Part shown: positions 2,946 to 23,806 of the stretch, piece by piece | Position numbering within the stretch: the stretch's first letter is position 1 | Layout: each line of letters starts with the position of its first letter | DNA from: a virus | Taxonomy: Duplodnaviria; Heunggongvirae; Uroviricota; Caudoviricetes | Direction: 5' to 3' (one strand) | Virus record (IMG/VR): IMGVR_UViG_2706794664_000009 | Length of the DNA: 25,730 nucleotides | Made by a program: the position numbers and the translations under genes | The notes under the pieces: generated by a model | Told to the model about the DNA's origin: nothing | Database searches by the model: none | Seen by the model: the letters and a program-made list of their open reading frames with translations, nothing else

Positions 2946-3004
2946 GGTATCCGTTCTGCTGAAGTGTCATGGCGTTGATTTTACGGTGACTCTTCGACAG
3001 TGAA

Positions 3005-3029
3005 AAGAAAAAAGGCCGCAGAGCGGCCA
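3005..3029 (-). terminator. Candidate rho-independent terminator (minus strand)
   Basis: GC hairpin GGCCGC-agag-CGGCC (3015-3029) preceded on the plus strand by aaaagaaaaaa, which is a T-run after the hairpin on the minus strand. It sits just downstream of the minus-strand ORF ending at 3138 and upstream of btuC. Confidence 0.45.
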
Positions 3030-3137
3030 TAAACACAAACAAAAATCAATAAGTTAGGTAATTATCAAAGACTTACAGACACACAAAAACACAGCCAACC
3101 ACAACAAATAACAGAGATGTGGTCAATTTGTGGATCA

Positions 3138-3692
3138 TCAGCCAACAAATTTAGCAACAAATACAGCAACCGCCGCTGTGAAAATGGTTGTGCACACTGG
3201 CACAATAATGCCACTCCAACGCCACTTCGTATTATCATCAACCTTGTCAAACCGCCGATTCATCTCATCCATAATCTTGTCAAAGCGTTTATCCATCGCT
3301 TCGGTAAGCTCACCCTTCAGGCTGTTAATGTCTGATTTGAGCTGCTCTTTCAGGTTAGCTGTATCAGATTTAAGCTCACCTTTCAGATTCGCAATATCGC
3401 ATTCAAGATCACCTTTCAGATGTGCTATGTCTGCTTTGAGTTCACCTTTCACCTCACCAACATCGGCTTTAGTTGAGAGGTTTGTAGTGCGTTCAGCAAG
3501 CGTCGCAAGGTCGTTTCTTGTTAGCGATAAATCACCTTCGAGCCGCTCAATTCGCCTTTCAAGTTTATCTGACATTCCGCCTCCACTACTGCCGCCATCG
3601 CCACCATGATAAAGCACATCACGCTCAGAATGCGACACACTACCTGCTGAATTACCGAAAAGATTTCTTGCTACATTACCCATTATCACCAT
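3138..3692 (-). CDS. Coiled-coil protein with tandem 11-residue repeats and a C-terminal hydrophobic anchor; function unknown
   Basis: ORF with repeats LKGELKADIAH / LKGDLECDIAN / LKGELKSDTAN / LKEQLKSDINS and a C-terminal TM-like segment (IIVPVCTTIFTAAVAVFVAKFVG). An alternative start at 3575 (MSDKLERR) has a GGAGG 4 nt upstream. The region is AT-rich relative to the phage structural genes. Confidence 0.55.
   Translation of the reverse strand: MVIMGNVARNLFGNSAGSVSHSERDVLYHGGDGGSSGGGMSDKLERRIERLEGDLSLTRNDLATLAERTTNLSTKADVGEVKGELKADIAHLKGDLECDIANLKGELKSDTANLKEQLKSDINSLKGELTEAMDKRFDKIMDEMNRRFDKVDDNTKWRWSGIIVPVCTTIFTAAVAVFVAKFVG
3300..3455. repeat. Five tandem 33-bp direct repeats inside the coiled-coil ORF
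   Basis: The motif agctcacc(t/c)ttcag recurs with ends at 3320, 3353, 3386, 3419 and 3452, an exact 33-bp period that encodes the 11-residue protein repeats. Confidence 0.7.
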
Positions 3693-4005
3693 CCTGCGCT
3701 TTGTCTTTCTCCAACCACTTCAGCACCGCAGACGTACGATAAAGGCTCAGGTAACCACAATTCAGGCAATGCAGCGTGTAATAAGTTTTGCGCATATCAG
3801 GTATGCTCTTAACATCACCCAAAAAAGCATAAGATACATAATGCTTTATGTTCTCTTTAATTAACTCACTCTGTTCCTCCAGGGGTAGATTGTTAAAATT
3901 TTCTGGTTTCTTATTTTTATCCCAGCAAAGATCCATACTTTCTGGAACAGATAATCGCGACGATCCACATGAAGGGCAGACACTGGAGACCCCCTTCTCA
4001 GACAA
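3676..4005 (-). CDS. Small zinc-ribbon protein (CPSCG ... CLNCG); function unknown
   Basis: 109-aa ORF with two CxxC pairs. The called start is TTG at 4005 and the frame is open into the masked run, so the true 5' end may lie inside 4022-4252. Its stop overlaps the long form of the downstream coiled-coil ORF. Confidence 0.45.
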   Translation of the reverse strand: MSEKGVSSVCPSCGSSRLSVPESMDLCWDKNKKPENFNNLPLEEQSELIKENIKHYVSYAFLGDVKSIPDMRKTYYTLHCLNCGYLSLYRTSAVLKWLEKDKAQDGDNG

Positions 4006-4252
4006 GAAACGGAAGAAGATTNNNNNNNNNNNNNNNNNNNNNNNNNNNNNNNNNNNNNNNNNNNNNNNNNNNNNNNNNNNNNNNNNNNNNNNNNNNNNNN
4101 NNNNNNNNNNNNNNNNNNNNNNNNNNNNNNNNNNNNNNNNNNNNNNNNNNNNNNNNNNNNNNNNNNNNNNNNNNNNNNNNNNNNNNNNNNNNNNNNNNNN
4201 NNNNNNNNNNNNNNNNNNNNNNNNNNNNNNNNNNNNNNNNNNNNNNNNNNNN

Positions 4253-5138
4253 GCCCCAGAATTTTCTGGAGCGTCAGAATATTGCCGCCGTTCATCATGA
4301 AATGACTGGCGAAGGTGTGGCGCAGCGCATGAACAGCCTGGCCGTCAGGAACATCAGGTGCGACCGTTTTGATGACATCGCGAACCAATGAATAATCCAG
4401 CGTCGGAAACACCAGTTTCCCGCCCCGTTTTTTGATCTTTTCAAACAGGCTTTCAGAAATAGGAACGGTACGGTTTTTGCTGTTCTTCGTTTTTGAAAAA
4501 GTGATTCGACAATGAAGAACACGGCGCTGCTCCAGTGCCGCTACCTCGCCCCATCGCGCCCCGGTCGACAGAAGGATTTCGACGGCCAGCCGTTCATCGG
4601 GATTTTCAGCCAGTGCATCCAGCAACTGAACACATTCAGACTTACTCAGATATCCCATTTCACGCTCGTTAACCTTCATTCCTTTAAGGCCTTGAACGGG
4701 GTTATCGTTAAGAAAATGGCCGGATGAGATGAGTGCGGTAAACATCGCGCTTAACGCCCCAATCTCTCGATTTATGGTGCTGGGCTGTATCCCCTGCTCT
4801 ATCCTGGACACACGTAGCTCGGTGAGCATCGTTGTATTAAGTTTATGCACGCACGGGTCATCCATTGCCTCACTCAAGCGCAGCAATTTAAGGCGCGTGT
4901 TATGCCCTGACTTCATTAGCTGGCCGTGGTATTTCCACCACAAGTCAATAAGCACTGACAGCGGACGGCGATCAATGGAGTTTCCTTTCCACTCATTGTT
5001 ATGCTGTTGCGCCAGCACCCACCGCTCATATAAAACTGCATCCGATTTCGTTTTAAATTTTTTGCGAATGCGTTTGCCTTTACGCCCCTCAGGACGCATG
5101 TCAAGAAGATACCCTCCCGGAATTGATTTTATGCTCAT
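4253..5138 (-). CDS. int: P2-type tyrosine integrase (3' end inside masked run 4022-4252)
   Basis: From the ATG at 5138 (MSIKSIPGG...) the protein aligns along its length with recalled P2 Int, including GARWGE, HALRHTFA and the C-terminal LQKILG that runs into the gap. About 40 residues, including the catalytic Tyr, should lie in the masked part. Confidence 0.9.
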
Positions 5139-5187: not shown

Positions 5188-5499
5188 TTAGCCGGGCTGT
5201 GTGCCAGTCTTGCGGGATTTTTGAGAAGACGATGTGTTTTCTGGCCCATCAGGGGAGAGAGAAGGACTGATCTGCCCAGCAGCCTCATTTGTTTCGTTAC
5301 TCATCAACCACGTAGTGTATTTTTTAAATTCCGGGTGCATTGTGATTTTCAGTAAAACCTCCGTTCCCACACCTCGAATACCAGTCTCGTATTGCTTAAC
5401 CGTACCAACCGCAATACCTATTGAATCCGCGAACTTTGCCTGACTAAGCCCCTCAGATTCTCGAATTGCTTTTAGCTTCTTTGATATCTCTATTGACAT
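5188..5499 (-). CDS. C: P2 C-type immunity repressor
   Basis: 103-aa ORF from the ATG at 5499 (MSIEISKK...), about 100 aa like P2 C, with a C-terminal pattern close to recalled P2 C (PEFKKYTTWLMSNE ... GQISP ... SQKSRKTG). It lies immediately upstream of int and divergent from the early operon. Confidence 0.8.
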   Translation of the reverse strand: MSIEISKKLKAIRESEGLSQAKFADSIGIAVGTVKQYETGIRGVGTEVLLKITMHPEFKKYTTWLMSNETNEAAGQISPSLSPDGPENTSSSQKSRKTGTQPG

Positions 5500-7933: not shown

Positions 7934-10761
7934 ATGACGGCAGAGTACATCAGGGACTGGCAACAACCGCGCCANNNNNNNNNNNNNNNNNNNNNNNNNN
8001 NNNNNNNNNNNNNNNNNNNNNNNNNNNNNNNNNNNNNNNNNNNNNNNNNNNNNNNNNNNNNNNNNNNNNNNNNNNNNNNNNNNNNNNNNNNNNNNNNNNN
8101 NNNNNNNNNNNNNNNNNNNNNNNNNNNNNNNNNNNNNNNNNNNNNNNNNNNNNNNNNNNNNNNNNNNNNNNNNNNNNNNNNNNNNNNNNNNNNNNNNNNN
8201 NNNNNNNNNNNNNNNNNNNNNNNNTGCGCCTGCTGCCGTCCTATCTGCGCGATCCGCTTATTCGCCACCTCTCCTTCCTGCGCAAAAAACAGGAAGCCGA
8301 TCGCCGGAAAGGCAAAAAGAGCTGGCAGGCGGAACGCTATGCACGCGGAACCCTGCGCAAAATATTCGAACGTCTGGATCGCACTGACGGACACTGGCTG
8401 ACACCGGGTTATCGCTCCCTTGCCGGACGTGAACGCCTGGACGATTTGCTTTACCTGCCGCAACTCAACAAACACCAGATACAGACGCTGGCCACCATGA
8501 CGGCGGCGATGTTCAGCAGCACCTTCGAAAAACTCTGCGATGGTTTTGGCGCGACTGATGGCGAGCTGACCATGGATGTAACGCTGAAGGCGTATCAGAT
8601 GCTGGCCCGCATGGCGTTACACTTACACGCCATGCCTCCGCATTATGACGCACTGACAACAGACAAAGACCGGAGGCACGAACCGGACACAGAACTGCTG
8701 CCGGGCGCAATCCTTCGCCTGACCTGTGCGGAATGGTGGAAACGCAAACTGTGGCTGTTACGTTGCGAGTGGAGAGAAGAACAACTTCGCGCCGCCTGTC
8801 TGGTTTCCAGAAAAACATCGCCCTATCTGAGCCAGGACGCGTTAAGCGAGTTTCGCGCACAGCGCGAGAAAACACGCGATTTCCTGAAAAGTTTCATGCT
8901 GGAAAATGAAGACGGGTTCACGATTGATCTCGAGACGGTGTATTACGCGGGAGTAAGTAACCCGGTTCACCGTAAGGCAGAAATGATGGCCACCATGAAG
9001 GGGCTGGAACTTCTGGCCGAAGCCCGTGGCGACAAAGCGGTGTTTCTGACTGTCACCTGCCCGTCAAAATACCACGCCACAACGGAGAACGGTCATCCGA
9101 ATCCCAAATGGAACGGGGCCACAATGCGCGACTCCAGCGATTACCTGGTTAACACGTTTTTTGCGACGGTCCGCAAAAAACTGAACCGCGACGGCCTGCG
9201 CTGGTATGGCATCCGCACGGCGGAGCCTCACCATGACGGCACCGTGCACTGGCATATGATGGTCTTTGCTCATCCGGAAGAAATCGACACCATTGTGTCC
9301 CACACCCGCGATATTGCCATTCAGGAAGATCGTCACGAGCTGGGCGATGACATAACTCCGCGCTTTAAGGCGGAGTATGTAGACGGCTCAAAAGGCACGC
9401 CAACCAGCTACATCGCCACCTACATCGGGAAAAACCTGGACAGCCGCGCCGTGGATGGCATCGACCCGAAAACGGGCAAGCCACGCGTTGACCACGAAAC
9501 CGGAAAATCAATGGCCGAGAGCGTGGAACGCGCCATCGGCTGGGCGCGCCTTCACCGGGTCCGCCAGTTCCAGTTCTTTGGCATCCCCTCCCGCCAGGTA
9601 TGGCGTGAACTGCGCCGCCTTGCCAGCCAGATGGCACGCAACCCGGAAAGCCCGCAACGGCTGAAGGATGACGCAATGGATGCGGTTCTTGCCGCCGCTG
9701 ATGCCGGATGTTTTGCCACCTACATAGAGAAACAGGGCGGCGTACTTGTTCCACGCAAAGACTACCTGATTCGCACCGCCTACGACCTCGCCGATGAGCT
9801 GAACGATTACGGCGAACAGAGCGTACAGATTTACGGGATCTGGTCACCACTCATCGGGGAATCCTCCCGTGTGTGCACGCATCCGGATAACTGGAAGCTG
9901 GTAAGACGCAAACCGGAAGCGGAAGACAGCGCCCGCGAAAATGGTTTTGACCTTCAGGGCGGCCCTGCCGCCCCTTGGACTCGTGGCAATAACTGTCCCC
10001 GTGTACAGGAAACGGACAACAACGGGACAGAACAGCCGGAAGAACGGCCAGCACCGTGGCCGCAGCTCCCTGACGGCGTTGATGTGGATGAATGGATGCG
10101 CTCACTGAAACGGCACGAACGCCGGGCGCTGATGCGTTCGCTTCGTGACAAACAGGCAAAAAACAGCAGTGATGAAATGCAGAGCTGGACACAGAGCCGC
10201 AAACAGCAGCGGCCTTTGCCTGATAACCACGAATTACTCGCTAAAGAATGGCGGGAGTCTGCTGAATCTCTCGGCCTGCATATCGGTGAACAACAGATGC
10301 AGCACCTGTTACGGGGCGGCAGTCTGTACGTTGACGGCAGCATCATTGCACCGCAGGGATTTGAAATTGTACGCAAACCGGATACCCGCCCGGACAGCCG
10401 AATCACGCAGCTCTGGCAGCGCCTGAGCCGTAATCATGGCGTAAGCAGCACGGAGATCCGCCATAACCCGGTCGCCAGCTATCTGACACAGCTGGGGGCA
10501 TCAGACCCTGAAGCCGCCGCACGCCTGGCATCCACACTTCAGCAGGACCAGAACACCATGAAAACACCCGTTACCGTGCTTTCTGACATGCTGCGCGCCA
10601 TCCGCGACGCAGAGCACGCACAGAGAATCAGTGAAACCACTGAACGCGCCCGCCGCAAAGCAGACCTGCTGCGGGGTGGCCTGACCAGTGGAAACAAAAA
10701 ACAGACAGAAACGGGACTCACGAATCCCGTAAATGAGCAAAAAACGCGCAGCGATATATGA
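7934..10761 (+). CDS. A: P2 gpA-type rolling-circle replication initiator (interrupted by masked run 7975-8224)
   Basis: Long frame 8227-10761 carries an HUH motif (VHWHMMVFAH) and a catalytic Tyr pair (SYIATYIGKN, YxxxY as in phiX174 gpA and P2 A). Likely start is ATG 7934; the frame on either side of the gap differs by 1, read as gap-length imprecision. Confidence 0.85.
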
Positions 10762-10837: not shown

Positions 10838-11814
10838 ATGAAAATTTGTATCGACGACGGCTCCACCAACATCAAGCTGGCATGGACTGAGAACGGCGAA
10901 CGCCGCAACGCCATCAGCCCGAACAGCTTCAAGTCGGAATGGTCTGCGCCGTTCGGTGGCATGCAGCCCGCGAACTACATNNNNNNNNNNNNNNNNNNNN
11001 NNNNNNNNNNNNNNNNNNNNNNNNNNNNNNNNNNNNNNNNNNNNNNNNNNNNNNNNNNNNNNNNNNNNNNNNNNNNNNNNNNNNNNNNNNNNNNNNNNNN
11101 NNNNNNNNNNNNNNNNNNNNNNNNNNNNNNNNNNNNNNNNNNNNNNNNNNNNNNNNNNNNNNNNNNNNNNNNNNNNNNNNNNNNNNNNNNNNNNNNNNNN
11201 NNNNNNNNNNNNNNNNNNNNNNNNNNNNNNNNNNNNNNNNNNNNNACCAGAACGGCGAAGCATTCACTATCCGTAACGTGCGGGTTATGCCTGAATCCAT
11301 TCCGGCTGGCTTTAAGGCACTGGCTGACATGAGTCCGTTTGAATCCCTGCTGATTGTGGATTTGGGCGGAACCACGCTGGATGTGGCAAAGGTTCAGGGG
11401 CAACTGGCAGGTATCAGCCAGGTGTTTTGCGATCCACACGTAGGCGTTTCTCTGATGGCCGATGCCGTACTGTCGGTGATGGCCACTAACGGTATGCGCA
11501 CCAGTCACCACATCGCCAATACCATTATCGAACATCGCCATGATGAAGCCTGGCTGCGCCAGCACATCCACAATGACGCGCATTACGCCAGCCTGATGGC
11601 GGTTATTCGTGAAAAGGAAGAAACACTGAAACAACGCGTGATCCGCGCGCTGGCGGGTTTTTCGGGTTACGGGCGGGTGATGGTTGTCGGTGGAGGGGCG
11701 GAGATTGTGGCACCCGCTATCCGCGAAGCCTGCGGAGTTAATGCGACTTTCATCGCGGACGGGGTGCCACAGTTTGCTCTGGTTAATGGGCTGTACGCAA
11801 TGGACAAGGAGTAA
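10838..11814 (+). CDS. parM: ParM/StbA-like actin-type ATPase (interrupted by masked run 10981-11245)
   Basis: N-terminus MKICIDDGSTNIKLAW ... ISPNSFKSEW resembles plasmid R1 ParM as recalled. Downstream blocks also match (DLGGTTLD, GISQVFCDPHVGVSL, GFSGYGRVMVVGGGAEI, LVNGLYAM). Total span is about 325 codons versus about 320 aa for ParM. Confidence 0.8.
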
Positions 11815-11818
11815 ACCA

Positions 11819-12130
11819 ATGACGACACCAACCAGACGGATAAGTTTCTATCTGAAGCCTGCGGCCGTCAAGAACGAAAGCGAAGCATGCGCCTGGCTGG
11901 GCAGCCTTACACCAGAAGCCCGCAAAAGCGGCCAACGCGTGGCTTTTCTGGCCGGGCTGGCACTTCTGAAAATGAATCCAGCAGAGGCTTACCGACTGGC
12001 TGCATGGGCTGACGATGAGGCGTTATCGGTGACACAAACCAGGACAGAACGCCCCGTGCCACAGCCAGTACCAACCGCACAGATAACCAGTCAGATAGCA
12101 GGGAATATCCGGGCATTATTTCCTGAATGA
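11819..12130 (+). CDS. parR: ParR-like small DNA-binding protein (putative partition or operator adaptor)
   Basis: 103-aa ORF starting 5 nt after the parM-like stop, with AAGGAG upstream. Local resemblance to recalled R1 ParR (RISFYLKP; QRVAFLAGLALLKMNP versus NRAALTAGLALYRQDP; NIRALFPE versus NILRSLFPKE). Weaker evidence than for parM. Confidence 0.55.
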   Translation: MTTPTRRISFYLKPAAVKNESEACAWLGSLTPEARKSGQRVAFLAGLALLKMNPAEAYRLAAWADDEALSVTQTRTERPVPQPVPTAQITSQIAGNIRALFPE

Positions 12131-12190: not shown

Positions 12191-12715
12191 ATGAAAAAAT
12201 ACGAATACATGCTAATGAAAGAAGCACTGCGGGCTGGTCTGGCTCCCTGTCCTGTATCCGTAGAAGCTGTTGTTGGGAACACGATTTTCCGAACGCTGCG
12301 AAATCGCGTATCCGTGAAGATGGTTCACCAACCACCCAAATCTACCAGCATGATCTATCTGCCGCTGCCCGAGGCTATCAAACTTATGCGTTCGCTGAAA
12401 TTTGCGATTTGGATGCAGACACAAATCAACAAAGCGGTGCAAAACACCTTCGTTAAGAGACTAATACCGGAGCTTGCTGCCAGATGTGCAAAATGTACCA
12501 GACCCGCACTTCAATTTGATCTGTCATTGATTCAACAAGCTACGGAGGCAGAACTGTACCGCCTGTCACCTATCCGTGATGCTCACACGGAAGCATCAGA
12601 AATGTTCCGGCTCATGTTTCAATTTAATTTTGCCGTTCGACGCACACGCGTTCAGGTCAATCGCATGATGCAGGAGCAGGAAGAGTTAACACAGTACAAA
12701 GGGGGCAGCCAGTGA
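12191..12715 (+). CDS. Hypothetical 174-aa protein; first gene of an accessory operon in the tin/old-equivalent locus
   Basis: GAGGA Shine-Dalgarno 8 nt upstream of the ATG. I recognise no motif or family. The region is AT-richer by eye than the phage structural genes. Confidence 0.55.
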   Translation: MKKYEYMLMKEALRAGLAPCPVSVEAVVGNTIFRTLRNRVSVKMVHQPPKSTSMIYLPLPEAIKLMRSLKFAIWMQTQINKAVQNTFVKRLIPELAARCAKCTRPALQFDLSLIQQATEAELYRLSPIRDAHTEASEMFRLMFQFNFAVRRTRVQVNRMMQEQEELTQYKGGSQ

Positions 12716-12951
12716 GTAATTCAGCACGACTACAGCTTGGTTTTTCACCGCTATCAAAAACCATCGTATTGGCAAAAATGCGTGACTTAGGAGACGGAAC
12801 AAAACGCCGCGTAGGAAATGATCGCGGTCGCGATGTAACCAACGAGGCCGCTCAACTCGTTTGGCATCTAGTCATGGCAGAAGGCGGTGAAATTAATTGG
12901 GAGCTGGATGATGGTTCTCGTATGATTTTGAGGGCCGAGAAGAGTAAATAG
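12712..12951 (+). CDS. Hypothetical 79-aa protein, translationally coupled to the upstream gene
   Basis: GTG start overlaps the upstream TGA (GTGA) and a G-rich stretch precedes it. No recognisable motif. Confidence 0.4.
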   Translation: MSNSARLQLGFSPLSKTIVLAKMRDLGDGTKRRVGNDRGRDVTNEAAQLVWHLVMAEGGEINWELDDGSRMILRAEKSK

Positions 12952-13642: not shown

Positions 13643-14689
13643 TCAGGATGTGGGCTGGGTGTCTAACAGTGCGTAAGGGTTAAAGCGGATCACCTCTTCG
13701 CCAAGCCAGTCATTGATGTGCTTCATGGCCTCCATGACGGGCATCAGCTCGTTAATTGCGTAAACCCGCGCGGCCTTCTCCACATCACCAAACGCACTTT
13801 TTTCGCCCGGCATCGCCCCCATCAGTTGCGGCGGAACGCGGTGCGCAGCCAGCACATCATCACGGGATGCCGCCTTAACATTCATGAACTCATCCTTTGC
13901 GGTGATCTGCTGGAACGGCAAAATTTGCACCCCCTCTTTGCCCCCGTTGGGCGCATGAATGAGCACGTTTTTAAACGCACCACCACCACGTGCCCCCTGT
14001 AGCGTTTCTTTCAGGGAGTCCATGCTTTCGCGGTTTACCTGCGCTGCACCGATGTAGATGATGCACCCGGCGTGGGATCCGTTGTCGTAGTACAGTTTTC
14101 TGAACATGTCCGCCGAATGAGAAAGGCTGGCCGAGAGTAATGCGCCAAGATATTCCGGCATGCCGTAGATTTCCTGGTTAATATCCGGATTCATCAGGTG
14201 GCACACTTTGCCAGGACGAAACTGAAACGCATCCTTGCCATCCTGCACATACCACCATGATTCAAGATCGCTTCCGCGTCGCATGTATTTCGCCAGGGCG
14301 TGCCGTAATTTAAGCGGTTCGCCGAGCATATTGCTCCGAAGCTCAAGGAATGCGTTACCGAACACAAACCAGTCCAGCGCCAGCGCCGAGAAATCCTGCC
14401 GGGAAAGCAGCGGGTGCGGAATATAGCAGCCGAGCAATACATTGCGCTTAAAGTAAAGCGCAGACTGATGCCAGGACGTTTGCCGGGCAGCTCTTGCCAG
14501 ACCGTACCAGTCCACCGGGGTTTCATACCACCGCCCGTTATCAGCACAGTACATATTGTCCAGCAGGTCATGCCCGGTCAGGCGGTAAGGACCATCAAAT
14601 GTGAATGCACTGAGCGACGATTCTTTCCTGAGCGCATCAGCGAGATCAATGCGTGAACTCATGCGCACTTTTTTATTTTTTCTGCTCAT
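13643..14689 (-). CDS. Q: Portal protein (P2 gpQ homolog)
   Basis: 348-aa ORF, size and position as P2 gpQ (about 344 aa), downstream of and 1-nt overlapping the terminase gene, adjacent to the cos region. Confidence 0.9.
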   Translation of the reverse strand: MSRKNKKVRMSSRIDLADALRKESSLSAFTFDGPYRLTGHDLLDNMYCADNGRWYETPVDWYGLARAARQTSWHQSALYFKRNVLLGCYIPHPLLSRQDFSALALDWFVFGNAFLELRSNMLGEPLKLRHALAKYMRRGSDLESWWYVQDGKDAFQFRPGKVCHLMNPDINQEIYGMPEYLGALLSASLSHSADMFRKLYYDNGSHAGCIIYIGAAQVNRESMDSLKETLQGARGGGAFKNVLIHAPNGGKEGVQILPFQQITAKDEFMNVKAASRDDVLAAHRVPPQLMGAMPGEKSAFGDVEKAARVYAINELMPVMEAMKHINDWLGEEVIRFNPYALLDTQPTS

Positions 14690-16268
14690 CAGAACTCCAT
14701 AACCGTGAAACGCTCGTTTTCTCCTTCGCCGCCAATCGGTTCGTTAATGACAGCAAGCATGGTTGCCCACGCAAGGTCGCCGTGGCTGATCCCCCTCGCG
14801 CGGTCCGTTTCGTAAGTGATAAAACCGCCCGGTGTTTTCACCTTACGCACGGCGTTAAAGGCCGCAACCAGCTCGCGTTCGGCGCGATCGTATTCCCACC
14901 GCCCGGCACGCATTATTTGCAGCATTTTCAGTACCAGCGACCGTTTTGATGACAGCGTGAAGGTGTAAGGGATGGCGGCGGGAAAAAACCGTTTCACTAT
15001 CTGATAGACGGCATCCCCGTGCCCGCCCGTCGCATCAATGCCGATGTGTTCCACGTTGTAGCGATACGTGAACTCTTCAATAACTCTGGCCTGCTCTTCA
15101 AATTCCAGCCCCTGAACGCGTCGCGTCTCCACCGTTCTGAAACGACCACCAGGAACAGCCGGAGGAACCACCACGGACACAGCGCCGCTGTCGCCGTTAC
15201 CACTGCTGCCGTTTGCGTCATACCCAATCCATACCGGACGATTCCCCATCGGGCGGGGGGCAAAGGGTTTCCAGTCTTTCCAGTCGTCGTATCCGTCAAC
15301 ACCGCAGCCAATCAGGATATTCAGGTTAAATGCCGATTCCCCTTCGCGGACAAACTCACACATATAGAGATTGCGGAACTCGTCTTCGGTGTTTTCATCA
15401 CGAATTTCATCAATATCGGTGTGTTTCCAGCCGTGATTAACCACATCTTCCAGCGTGACAATTTGCCGCCACGTCCGGTCAGGGCAGATAAGCCCGTTAT
15501 GCAGCGTTTTCCAGTCCACAGAAAAACGCTGGCGTTTATGCGCGGCCTTTTTCTCGTTCCAGCGGTCGCCGTTCCAGTAGGCGTATGCCTCGTGCGTTTC
15601 GGTGGATGGCGTGGAGAAGCAGGTGCGCCGCAGTCCGCTGAGGGTTGCCATAGCGCCAGCCACCTTGCGCAGTTCAGCAAAGCGACTGACCCAGAAAAAT
15701 TCATCAAAATAAAAATTGCCCGTGTAAGATTGCGCCGTCGCAGCAGAAGTGCCGAGAAAATGCATCTCTGCGCCGTTGGAGAGGATGATTTTATCGCCCC
15801 CTTTCAGCTCCACATCGACTTCAGCCGCGGCCTTCTGAATAATGCTTTTAAACTGGAACGCCTGACGACGCGACGCAGACAAAAAAATCTGGTTACGCTG
15901 GTAAGGTTGTGCCACATCGTCACGCAGCGCCATCAGCAGTGCTTCCTGTGCAAAATACCAGGTCGCCCCAATCTGTCGGGATTTCAGGATCATCCTGTTA
16001 CGTATCCCGGCTTCCCTGCAAAGCGTCAGGGAGTCAAACCAGCCCCGCTGATGCCACTCCAGCCTGCTGATGATTTTTTCCCGCAGTGCGGCAATCTGTT
16101 CCGGCGTGAAATGATTTTTGAGTTTTTTCGCCCGGCCTTTCTTTCCTGTGGCCGTCGCATCCGGCTGGCCATCATGCAGTTTTTTAAGCTGCCGGGTCAG
16201 CAGGTCTATTTCCTTAAAGTCACCACCTGTTTTATTCTGTTTTTCAGTAAGCTGGATGAGGCGCGCAT
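14689..16268 (-). CDS. P: Terminase large (ATPase) subunit (P2 gpP homolog); 5' end inside masked run 16269-16537
   Basis: Long minus-strand frame directly upstream of Q. Expected length of about 590 aa places the start inside the gap. Terminase-like internal sequence and P2 synteny. Confidence 0.9.
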
Positions 16269-16618
16269 NNNNNNNNNNNNNNNNNNNNNNNNNNNNNNNN
16301 NNNNNNNNNNNNNNNNNNNNNNNNNNNNNNNNNNNNNNNNNNNNNNNNNNNNNNNNNNNNNNNNNNNNNNNNNNNNNNNNNNNNNNNNNNNNNNNNNNNN
16401 NNNNNNNNNNNNNNNNNNNNNNNNNNNNNNNNNNNNNNNNNNNNNNNNNNNNNNNNNNNNNNNNNNNNNNNNNNNNNNNNNNNNNNNNNNNNNNNNNNNN
16501 NNNNNNNNNNNNNNNNNNNNNNNNNNNNNNNNNNNNNTTTCTTACAACAAAAGCCCTTTGTATCAGCCTGTTACGCTTTGCCATCATGACTGAAGAACCA
16601 GTCAGAGGGGCAAAAACT

Positions 16619-17478: not shown

Positions 17479-18455
17479 ATGAATCTGGTGATGTCAGATA
17501 TTACCCGCAACAAGCTGGGTTGCTATATGGCGCAGCAGGCGTCGCTTAACAATATCCCGGTTTCTGCACTGGTATCGCGATTTACCGTGGAACCTGCGGT
17601 GCAGCAACGTTTTGAAAACGCCTCAAAGGATAGCACCGAACTTACAAAAAAAATTAACGTGATCGGCGTGACCGACCAGAAAGGCGAAAAAATCCTCCTG
17701 GACACCACAGGACCGATTGCACGCACAAATACCAGTTATGACGGAACAAAACGCCGTAACCCGAATAACGTGGTTGATCTGAAAAACCGCAAATACCAGT
17801 GCGAACANNNNNNNNNNNNNNNNNNNNNNNNNNNNNNNNNNNNNNNNNNNNNNNNNNNNNNNNNNNNNNNNNNNNNNNNNNNNNNNNNNNNNNNNNNNNN
17901 NNNNNNNNNNNNNNNNNNNNNNNNNNNNNNNNNNNNNNNNNNNNNNNNNNNNNNNNNNNNNNNNNNNNNNNNNNNNNNNNNNNNNNNNNNNNNNNNNNNN
18001 NNNNNNNNNNNNNNNNNNNNNNNNNNNNNNNNNNNNNNNNNNNNNNNNNNNNNNNNNNNNNNNNNNNNACGTGACGCTGACTTCCCGCAACATGGACAAC
18101 ACCGTGGCGCACGCGGGTAAATACGCGAACCCTGATGCACTGGTACAGGACGCGCGCTCATCTCTGCTGGATGAATGGCACAAGGAAGCTGACGACCTCG
18201 TGGTGATTATGGGGCGCAACCTGTTTAACTCGCTGCGTCTGCCAGTGCTGAACAGCATCAGCGGCCAGAATCCCAATGCGGAATTACTTGCCGGGCAGCT
18301 CATCCTGTCATCGCGCACCATTGGCGGGCTGGGTGTGTTCCTTGCACCGTTCTTCCCGGATGCAACGATGCTGATCACCTCATTCAACAACCTGTCGATT
18401 TACTGGCAGAAAGGTTCAATGCGTCGTCTGATGAAAGACGAACCGGAATACAACC
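17479..18455 (+). CDS. N: Major capsid protein (P2 gpN homolog); internal masked run 17808-18068 and 3' end inside 18456-18709
   Basis: AGGAG RBS; matches recalled P2 gpN before and after the internal gap (RFTVEPAVQQ; RKYQCE; DLVVIMGRNL; PDATMLITSFNNLSIYW). Confidence 0.9.
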
Positions 18456-18709
18456 NNNNNNNNNNNNNNNNNNNNNNNNNNNNNNNNNNNNNNNNNNNNN
18501 NNNNNNNNNNNNNNNNNNNNNNNNNNNNNNNNNNNNNNNNNNNNNNNNNNNNNNNNNNNNNNNNNNNNNNNNNNNNNNNNNNNNNNNNNNNNNNNNNNNN
18601 NNNNNNNNNNNNNNNNNNNNNNNNNNNNNNNNNNNNNNNNNNNNNNNNNNNNNNNNNNNNNNNNNNNNNNNNNNNNNNNNNNNNNNNNNNNNNNNNNNNN
18701 NNNNNNNNN

Positions 18710-22612: not shown

Positions 22613-23211
22613 GCGCAGAACTCATGCGACTGCTGAGCAATATCATCCGCACCGGGATCATCTCTGAAGTTGATGAGGAATCCTGGTGCGTGCGCGTTCG
22701 CAGCGGCGAACTGGAAACAGGCTGGCTGCGCTGGAACACCACGCGCGCGGGAGACNNNNNNNNNNNNNNNNNNNNNNNNNNNNNNNNNNNNNNNNNNNNN
22801 NNNNNNNNNNNNNNNNNNNNNNNNNNNNNNNNNNNNNNNNNNNNNNNNNNNNNNNNNNNNNNNNNNNNNNNNNNNNNNNNNNNNNNNNNNNNNNNNNNNN
22901 NNNNNNNNNNNNNNNNNNNNNNNNNNNNNNNNNNNNNNNNNNNNNNNNNNNNNNNNNNNNNNNNNNNNNNNNNNNNNNNNNNNNNNNNNNNNNNNNNNNN
23001 NNNNNNNNNNNNNNNNNNNNNNNNNNNNNNGCCTGTCGTGGAATGCACAGACCTTCTGAGAACAGCGACGCTTGACGTCACAAAAGGGGGAACGATGAGC
23101 GGCAATATCACGCACAGCGGCGGCGATTTCACCTCAAACGGCATCACAGTGCATACGCATAAGCACGGTGGCGTTAAAGGTGGCAGCGATTCGACAGGAG
23201 GCCCGCAGTGA
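22609..23211 (+). CDS. V: Baseplate spike / assembly protein (P2 gpV homolog); internal masked run 22756-23030
   Basis: Same frame on both sides of the gap. Gly-rich C-terminus (HTHKHGGVKGGSDSTGGPQ). Position between S and W. Confidence 0.8.
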   Translation: MSAELMRLLSNIIRTGIISEVDEESWCVRVRSGELETGWLRWNTTRAGDXXXXXXXXXXXXXXXXXXXXXXXXXXXXXXXXXXXXXXXXXXXXXXXXXXXXXXXXXXXXXXXXXXXXXXXXXXXXXXXXXXXXXXXXXXXXPVVECTDLLRTATLDVTKGGTMSGNITHSGGDFTSNGITVHTHKHGGVKGGSDSTGGPQ

Positions 23212-23549: not shown

Positions 23550-23806
23550 NNNNNNNNNNNNNNNNNNNNNNNNNNNNNNNNNNNNNNNNNNNNNNNNNNN
23601 NNNNNNNNNNNNNNNNNNNNNNNNNNNNNNNNNNNNNNNNNNNNNNNNNNNNNNNNNNNNNNNNNNNNNNNNNNNNNNNNNNNNNNNNNNNNNNNNNNNN
23701 NNNNNNNNNNNNNNNNNNNNNNNNNNNNNNNNNNNNNNNNNNNNNNNNNNNNNNNNNNNNNNNNNNNNNNNNNNNNNNNNNNNNNNNNNNNNNNNNNNNN
23801 NNNNNG

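Follow-up and report, generated by a model that had tools for sequence, protein, structure and literature searches.

A conserved gene pair encoding a zinc-ribbon protein and a coiled-coil membrane protein between the integrase gene and attL of a P2-like prophage

The 25,730-nucleotide stretch of viral DNA held as IMG/VR record IMGVR_UViG_2706794664_000009 (Caudoviricetes; the whole stretch is called the window here) starts with the Escherichia coli genes nlpC-btuD-btuE-btuC on the minus strand and continues into a P2-like prophage. Two small overlapping genes of that prophage, also on the minus strand, lie between the integrase gene and the left attachment site (attL) and are designated A (positions 3676-4176), encoding a zinc-ribbon protein, and B (3138-3683), encoding a coiled-coil protein with a hydrophobic C-terminal anchor. 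Together they make up a real, conserved and uncharacterised two-gene phage cassette, the architecture of which is well supported while its function is a reasoned guess. Neither protein matches a described defence family and the module is uncharacterised in the literature found. The closest public match to the window is the prophage of E. coli O26 strain RM8426 (NZ_CP028116, locus L001), with 99.9% identity and a single mismatch over window positions 3040-4021, and this genome was used to read the stretch masked with N at 4022-4252.

In all 16 lineages of A examined, A is directly followed by a B-type gene whose start overlaps or abuts it. These lineages come from E. coli, Salmonella, Klebsiella, Providencia and metagenomes, with identity falling to ~20%. 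The original prediction had named absence of the pair from other genomes as grounds for giving the idea up, and all 16 divergent lineages carry it. The B-type proteins have a common layout, beginning with a variable peptide of 20-38 residues, a Gly/Asp-rich stretch (in all but the partner at locus L019) and an invariant Met, followed by a coiled coil starting L-E/D-x-R/K-x-x-x-L-E, a motif of the form [NS]YA[TS]K[EA]D or FATKSD and a C-terminal hydrophobic helix. A and B are a genuine conserved module.

The two genes also covary. A second allele group (locus L002, NZ_CP135706) has a B stalk and anchor ~98% identical to those of the window, preceded by an unannotated homolog of A of 132 aa. The A protein of this group (type 2) has 24% identity to that of the window group (type 1), with the Cys pairs conserved and a BLASTP expect value (E) of 2e-11. 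The N-terminal peptides of the B proteins are unrelated between the two types (RDVLY as opposed to GITLI motifs), whereas over its other 145 residues B is almost unchanged. The A-B arrangement recurs in a Klebsiella P2-like element. In a comparison of two type-1 alleles the synonymous divergence (dS) is highest in A, at 1.26, lower in the peptide (0.22) and lowest in the stalk (0.06). The unit exchanged between alleles is A plus the N-terminal peptide of B, which is what would be expected if A binds the peptide, and on this sequence pattern A would dock on residues 1-26 of B.

An identical A-B pair (155 and 122 aa; L012/L013 3001-3836) was found both behind a peptidase U32 gene and behind raiA, with the same 566-aa gene downstream. 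The occurrence of an identical pair behind two host genes suggests either a small mobile unit or a prophage end with more than one insertion site.

Gene A encodes a protein of ~166 aa, the 5′ end of the gene falling within the mask at 4022-4252. The original prediction had given the partner of B an extent of 109 codons, a figure that did not hold since the mask cuts the gene; in NZ_CP028116 A encodes 166 aa, and 2 nt separate its start, which has a GGAGG ahead of it, from the integrase stop codon. The N run stands for 249 nt in NZ_CP028116, making it 18 nt shorter than the homologous stretch, such that the start of A maps to window positions 4158-4176. The predicted CxxC...CxxC pattern was borne out, with the four Cys codons at 3976-3978, 3967-3969, 3766-3768 and 3757-3759 and all four Cys invariant in an alignment of 29 diverse homologs. 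The full set of invariant residues in this alignment is F54, C67, C70, C137, C140 and W154. In an AlphaFold2 model of a 97%-identical homolog, with a predicted local distance difference test score (pLDDT) of 84, beta strands surround both CxxC pairs. On this model A is a Cys4 zinc ribbon, with metal binding predicted from the fold and the Cys pattern. The ratio of nonsynonymous to synonymous substitution rates (dN/dS) of A is ~0.25.

The Cys4 family to which A belongs is an orphan. Exhaustive profile searching across 1.84 billion representative proteins recovered ~90 clusters, every one a stand-alone protein of 57-180 aa, and a word-indexed search recovered 18 clusters in E. coli, Shigella, Salmonella and Providencia. 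No structural relative of the family was found. Against the named zinc-ribbon families (Zn_ribbon_13, Lar, TFIIB-type and others) A stayed below the curated cut-offs, the best scores being those for Zn_ribbon_13 at 17-20 bits (top 20.2, cut-off 23), with 13 bits for Lar (cut-off 39.6). Among the 29 members no more than four match any one zinc-ribbon family, and these only weakly. No DNA-binding domain was detected in A. A natural allele of A has a 1-bp deletion at codon 51 with B intact (L020/L021 2501-2815) and is present on at least 14 contigs from different samples; codon 51 falls within the mask of the window. The type-2 A gene is without annotation in several RefSeq genomes (e.g., NZ_CP135706, L002 4630-5028).

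The long form of B has 181 aa and its start overlaps the A stop codon by 8 nt. The AlphaFold2 model (mean pLDDT 64) has residues 1-36 disordered and three helices (37-69, 72-146 and 150-180), with breaks at S70-T71 and at 147-149. Residues 1-26 (3606-3683, minus strand) are the variable N-terminal peptide, predicted to be disordered (pLDDT <50 over residues 1-31) and proposed as the docking site of A. They are followed by the Gly/Asp linker GGDGGSSGGG (residues 27-36, 3576-3605), which is present in 14 of 15 loci, being missing from the L019 partner, and which at one IMG/VR locus (L034 ~4060-4090) is enlarged by an in-frame 27-nt expansion, (GGD)3. At the other end of the protein the anchor occupies residues 150-181 (3141-3236), with a Kyte-Doolittle 19-residue mean of 2.43 at residue 159, in keeping with the hydrophobic C-terminal anchor that had been predicted for the minus-strand open reading frame at 3138-3692. 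This helix is poorly conserved and plainly hydrophobic, without polar pore-lining residues, and in one B allele the end of an insertion sequence (IS) element lies just before it (L038 ~4500). The earlier structural description, of a coiled-coil membrane protein with a zinc-ribbon partner and neither a core phage gene, agrees with both the models and the sequences.

The hydrophobic period of the stalk (residues 37-146) is 3.71, near 11/3 and reached by none of 2000 shuffles. This fits a hendecad coiled coil, although a period obtained from a single-chain prediction does not give the oligomer state; the coiled coil may be homotrimeric. Since B has no signal peptide, its C-terminal anchor is preceded by K/R and its partner is a Cys4 protein, B should be tail-anchored with the stalk in the cytoplasm. 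Stalks of DUF1640 proteins carry a beta-layer motif, [aliphatic]-A/S-T-K-polar-D/E (Hartmann et al., PMC4786415). LSTKAD of B (residues 69-74, 3462-3479) fits this motif and coincides with the helix break at S70-T71. In B the motif does not open the helical region but lies 33 residues into it, and it is kept in the distant B partners in the two forms given above.

The original prediction had described five exact 11-residue (33-bp) tandem copies. The period stands, both by Tandem Repeats Finder (33-bp period, 3.2 copies, 75% matches) and by the hydrophobic period, whereas the exactness does not, the five units at 3306-3470 (minus strand; KADVGEVKGEL, KADIAHLKGDL, ECDIANLKGEL, KSDTANLKEQL and KSDINSLKGEL) being degenerate, with 4-7 of 11 residues and 19-24 of 33 bases in common. 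Two further and more divergent 11-residue units, TEAMDKRFDKI and MDEMNRRFDKV, lie at 3240-3305, the second of which is gained or lost whole among homologs. The suggestion that repeat number varies between strains proved right. Homologs of B come in five lengths separated by 11-residue steps (192, 181, 170, 159 and 148 aa in the long form; 156, 145, 134, 123 and 112 aa as annotated), and in the alignment whole units are gained and lost, with some alleles having identical neighboring units. B partners in other genera are almost free of repeats (107 aa in Providencia, 91-100 aa elsewhere), indicating that the length of the stalk is free to vary about three-fold.

The start of B is more likely to be the ATG at 3683, which overlaps the A stop in the manner seen at Salmonella, Providencia and further E. 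coli loci, than position 3692. Most RefSeq records start B at an internal ATG (Met37, 3573-3575), giving a protein of 145 aa named "DUF1640 domain-containing / CCDC90 family protein", while others have the long form (170 aa, "CCDC90 family protein"). The stretch from the A stop to Met37 in the frame of B has no stop codon in 358 codons from 11 of 11 loci, compared with 12 and 54 in the other frames (P ~4e-11), and the ratio of nonsynonymous to synonymous polymorphism (pN/pS) of the N-terminal peptide is ~0.4-0.5 at larger distances. The long form of B is therefore coding. A mere spacer upstream of Met37 was considered and is ruled out by the stop-free codons together with the in-frame 27-nt expansion.

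Met37 is itself a candidate start of a short isoform of 145 aa. It is invariant among B homologs, and in the window a GGAGG within the linker (3580-3584) lies 4 nt upstream of it. A GGAGG is found 3-10 nt upstream of Met37 in 10 of 15 loci, where 2.4 would be expected from E. coli codon usage (P ~3e-6) and 5.0 from uniform synonymous codons (P ~0.005), three of the 15 loci having the same stalk and so not being fully independent. Given the invariant Met and the enriched GGAGG two isoforms are proposed, and B is probably made both as the long form and as a short form from Met37 that would be without the docking peptide. In-frame internal starts with their own Shine-Dalgarno sequence are also the device of the lambda S105/S107 holin/antiholin and of P22 SieB/Esc. 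In contrast to these, the two starts of B are 36 codons apart, the extra segment would be a docking peptide rather than a charge affecting topology, and the isoforms are predicted.

How A and B might work together can be outlined from these features. The pair would form a self-contained accessory cassette, the two proteins of which cooperate at the inner face of the cytoplasmic membrane. B would be held there by its C-terminal helix, from which a cytoplasmic hendecad stalk would extend, with its beta-layer near the start and a length set in 11-residue steps, to a tip at which a flexible linker rich in Gly and Asp carries the short variable peptide. A would be a small cytoplasmic Cys4 zinc-ribbon protein docking on that peptide. 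The long form of B would be translationally coupled to A, while the short form, from the internal Shine-Dalgarno sequence and ATG, would have no docking peptide. The pair would be co-transcribed with the repressor and integrase genes in a transcript ending at the terminator of the attachment core, and such co-transcription would place expression in the lysogen. A could then act as a soluble sensor or regulator and B as a membrane-bound scaffold or effector.

The proposed transcript rests on the gene order at this end of the prophage. Reading leftward on the minus strand, a gene for a helix-turn-helix immunity-repressor-like protein (5188-5499), the analogue of P2 C, is the first of the string and is followed by the P2-type tyrosine integrase gene (int, 4161-5138), A, B, a 110-nt arm and the core of the attachment site (att). 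The stop codon of int lies within the N mask, and in the unmasked relative it is 2 nt upstream of the A start. The att core (3004-3028, no strand assigned) is a 25-bp direct repeat, AAAGAAAAAAGGCCGCAGAGCGGCC, which is identical to the terminator hairpin of ihfA; in NZ_CP028116 its second copy lies beside ihfA, at the opposite end of the prophage. Read on the minus strand, the core is a hairpin with a T-run, which was also picked up by the terminator scan and would terminate an int-A-B transcript. It is the only strong terminator on the minus strand there, the scan having found no promoter-like and no strong terminator-like site from the repressor gene to B, and there is no space between int and A for a promoter or terminator. 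From this packing of the genes it is likely that A and B are expressed in the lysogen on the C-int transcript.

Between the att core and the B stop lies the phage-side att arm, which is non-coding (3029-3137, no strand assigned). A 99-nt part of it (3040-3138) is conserved at 95-98% identity in 301 of 5426 complete E. coli genomes irrespective of cargo and probably comprises the Int and integration host factor (IHF) arm sites of attP. Among these 301 genomes ~265 have the arm alone in common, while the B allele of the window is found in ~37, of which 23 carry the A type of the window and 14 carry type 2. The slot between int and att thus holds variable cargo, other P2-like prophages having different genes at the same att site, including an unrelated 131-aa gene (WP_000416304.1) in E. 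coli O26:H11 11368 (L022 3096-3491), a further candidate for cargo that has no PADLOC match, and a divergent A-B pair in the avian pathogenic E. coli strain E956. The pair is missing from most P2-like prophages at this att site. In a survey of P2-like prophages the int-att interval was a minor defense hotspot, with 3% of systems (PMC13586616, 2026). In keeping with this, and with the different cargo of other prophages, the label of "moron" that had been given to the two genes is apt, as were the accompanying observations that they sit at the prophage edge and are both AT-rich (45.2% GC in B and 38.7% in A, where the prophage portion of the window has 53.4%).

The setting of the pair elsewhere is most often similar. 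At 10 of the 16 loci, in P2-like, 186-like or lambdoid prophages, it belongs to the repressor/integrase operon, following int in P2/186-like elements at seven, separating the repressor gene from int at one (L019) and directly following a CI-type repressor gene in lambdoid prophages, in the position of rexAB in lambda, at two (L015, L027). Searches of 50,697 deposited phage genomes gave no match to A and distant matches only to B.

Searches of family databases place B near two known families and inside neither. Neither A nor B scored above a curated cut-off in Pfam or NCBIfam, nothing was found for either in a sequence search of the PDB, and a scan of the window against Rfam gave no match. Against the Pfam CCDC90-like family (PF07798, gathering cut-off 33.5) B of the window scores 24.1 bits and the best allele (192 aa) 28.7, the match covering stalk and anchor only and leaving profile positions 1-67 unmatched, whereas nine short-stalk B partners from other phages gave no match to PF07798 at E <= 0.01. 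The RefSeq naming of B thus rests on the repeat stalk. Against Pfam XhlA (PF10779, cut-off 34.7) B of the window has no match at E <= 1, and the best of its partners (L014) scores 30.5 bits. Weak PHROG matches of the window B are annotated "holin" (E 0.004) and "hemolysin" (E 0.023). B is like both families in build and passes the membership threshold of neither.

The resemblance to the DUF1640/CCDC90-like proteins (PF07798; MCUR1, CCDC90B and prokaryotic relatives) lies in the single C-terminal anchor, the long coiled-coil stalk and the beta-layer motif, and distant relatives, among them a CCDC90 protein of Kuenenia, have the 11-residue repeat style of B. The solved structures of MCUR1 and CCDC90B have a globular N-terminal head ahead of the stalk, in place of which B has a disordered peptide and Gly linker (residues 1-36); B differs too in always having a zinc-ribbon partner, in its phage setting and in its score below the cut-off. 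XhlA of the Bacillus prophage PBSX is likewise small and phage-encoded, its coiled coil being N-terminal and its membrane helix C-terminal. No zinc-ribbon partner of XhlA is known, and most A-B modules, unlike XhlA, are in lysogeny operons, with one of 16 beside a holin and endolysin and B of the window following int. ElaB, YqjD and YgaM (DUF883) have a cytoplasmic helical stalk on a single C-terminal membrane helix, and so resemble B as tail-anchored stalk proteins, but they are chromosomal stress genes without hendecad repeats or a partner gene, and they gave no sequence match to B in any search made.

The reading that we favor, tentatively, is that A-B is a lysogen-expressed phage-exclusion or abortive-infection cassette, a moron with a layout like that of RexA/RexB of lambda. 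The case for it is circumstantial and consists of the position in lysogeny operons, including the rexAB site, the variable-cargo slot, the patchy distribution, the diversified putative sensor and the location at the membrane. As with RexA/RexB there are two genes, one with a cytosolic and one with a membrane product, in a repressor operon and of an accessory, patchy kind. No similarity of sequence or fold to RexA/RexB was detected. Unlike B, with its long stalk and one anchor helix, RexB is polytopic and channel-like. Several observations weigh against an exclusion role. Six of the 16 loci are outside a lysogeny operon, three of them among or close to tail genes or of unclear setting, one beside ogr with no int nearby (Providencia), one at the edge of a degraded element beside hinT and one (L026) on a Mu-like contig with holin and SLT endolysin genes directly downstream. 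A search of PADLOC-DB 2.0.0 gave no match to a described defense system, B matching only coiled-coil-type profiles weakly (parts of LmuB/ZorA, best E 3.8e-5), A having one marginal match and type-2 A none, and PADLOC applied to neighboring cargo genes at other loci returned nothing beyond one weak match. Transcription from the repressor promoter is deduced from gene packing, and the dN/dS of the N-terminal peptide is ~0.8 between the two closest alleles, a value from few sites. Nothing resembling the module is present in the screen of Vassallo et al., and a literature search found no published work on it.

A more specific form of the exclusion reading, which is speculative and which we regard as rather unlikely, is that the pair is an undescribed two-protein anti-phage system in which B serves as a membrane-anchored coiled-coil ruler, with its length set in hendecad steps, and presents an exchangeable zinc-ribbon sensor on a tethered peptide. 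The two-start isoforms would set the threshold of such a system and swaps of A together with the docking peptide would change its specificity.

B might instead be an XhlA-like protein that helps or times the phage holin, with A as its regulator, a role in lysis that we consider unlikely. A dual start is a classic holin/antiholin device, and the XhlA score of one B homolog and the PHROG matches described above point the same way. On the Mu-like contig the pair, followed directly by Holin_2-3 and SLT endolysin genes, mirrors the xhlA-xhlB-xlyA order of PBSX, where all three genes are required for lysis (PMC5589764). None of these matches reaches a curated threshold, however, and at the 10 lysogeny-operon loci the pair has the orientation of the repressor and integrase genes, facing away from the late genes. 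P2-type phages have a complete lysis cassette elsewhere, and both the absence of the pair from most P2-like prophages at this att site and the scarcity of matches in deposited phage genomes argue against a part in lysis. Slightly less credence is given to an addiction module, in which B would be a membrane toxin and A an antitoxin acting on its N-terminal peptide such that the prophage is stabilized. Small overlapping genes with translational coupling and the antitoxin first would be the layout of such a module, A covaries with its presumed binding site on B and a Hok/Gef gene is carried at the other end of the same prophage. The frameshifted A allele with a fully intact B argues against A being indispensable, although the loss of translational coupling could also lower the amount of long-form B. 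The anchor of B, moreover, is poorly conserved and lacks polar pore-lining residues, and B too is disrupted in some alleles by IS insertion, so that both genes appear simply to decay.

That B tethers a regulator is improbable in our view. B would sequester A, as a nucleic-acid-binding factor for immunity, integration or excision, and would free it on perturbation of the membrane. The pair does sit inside or after the repressor-integrase operon, and between the two genes in L019, and A has its weak similarity to nucleic-acid-binding zinc ribbons, but no DNA-binding domain was detected and the pair occurs also among tail genes, lysis genes and beside ogr without an adjacent integrase gene. It is very improbable that A and B have no joint function, being two open reading frames adjacent by chance or A not being a real gene, as the missing RefSeq annotation of type-2 A in NZ_CP135706 and other records could suggest. 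Adjacency in every lineage examined, the invariant Cys, Phe and Trp residues of A, its low dN/dS and its confident model already contradict this.

If the pair does exclude phages, it would be a new compact membrane-based defense family, and would provide the first functional handle on the prokaryotic DUF1640/XhlA-like branch. The combination of a hendecad stalk held by a C-terminal anchor, a putative docking peptide tethered to it and a zinc ribbon from an orphan family is unusual. Prophages of pathogenic E. coli (O26, O103, O145 and O157), Salmonella, Klebsiella and Providencia carry the pair. Nature has provided a set of experiments in the 11-residue steps of the stalk, the putative sensor-peptide cassettes swapped on a constant stalk and the candidate second start. 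The inconsistency of RefSeq, in which A is missing from some records and B begins at the internal ATG, means that automated surveys of P2 cargo will miss the pair.

Eight stretches of 231-275 N are masked in the window (4022-4252, 7975-8224, 10981-11245, 16269-16537, 17808-18068, 18456-18709, 22756-23030 and 23550-23805). The first being 18 nt short, a mask need not keep its length, and everything to the right of it is numbered 18 nt out of register with NZ_CP028116.

Other accessory genes were seen in the same prophage. Window positions 10939-12130, partly masked at 10981-11245, encode an actin ATPase resembling ParM (ParM_N 230 bits, StbA_N) and a "Plasmid_stab_B" protein resembling ParR, which constitute a plasmid-type partition module within a P2-like prophage. 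This module lies in a variable region, with the replication gene (8446-10761) on one side and the portal gene (13643-14689) on the other, and is followed by a DUF7446 gene at 12712-12951. At the far prophage end in NZ_CP028116 (L011, 2400000-2418000) a 500-aa PIN-domain protein is encoded between gene D and ogr (listed at L011 12822-14324) and the Hok/Gef toxin gene lies between ogr and attR (15019-15159), while a serine O-acetyltransferase gene occupies the Z/fun position (L011 5015-5587).

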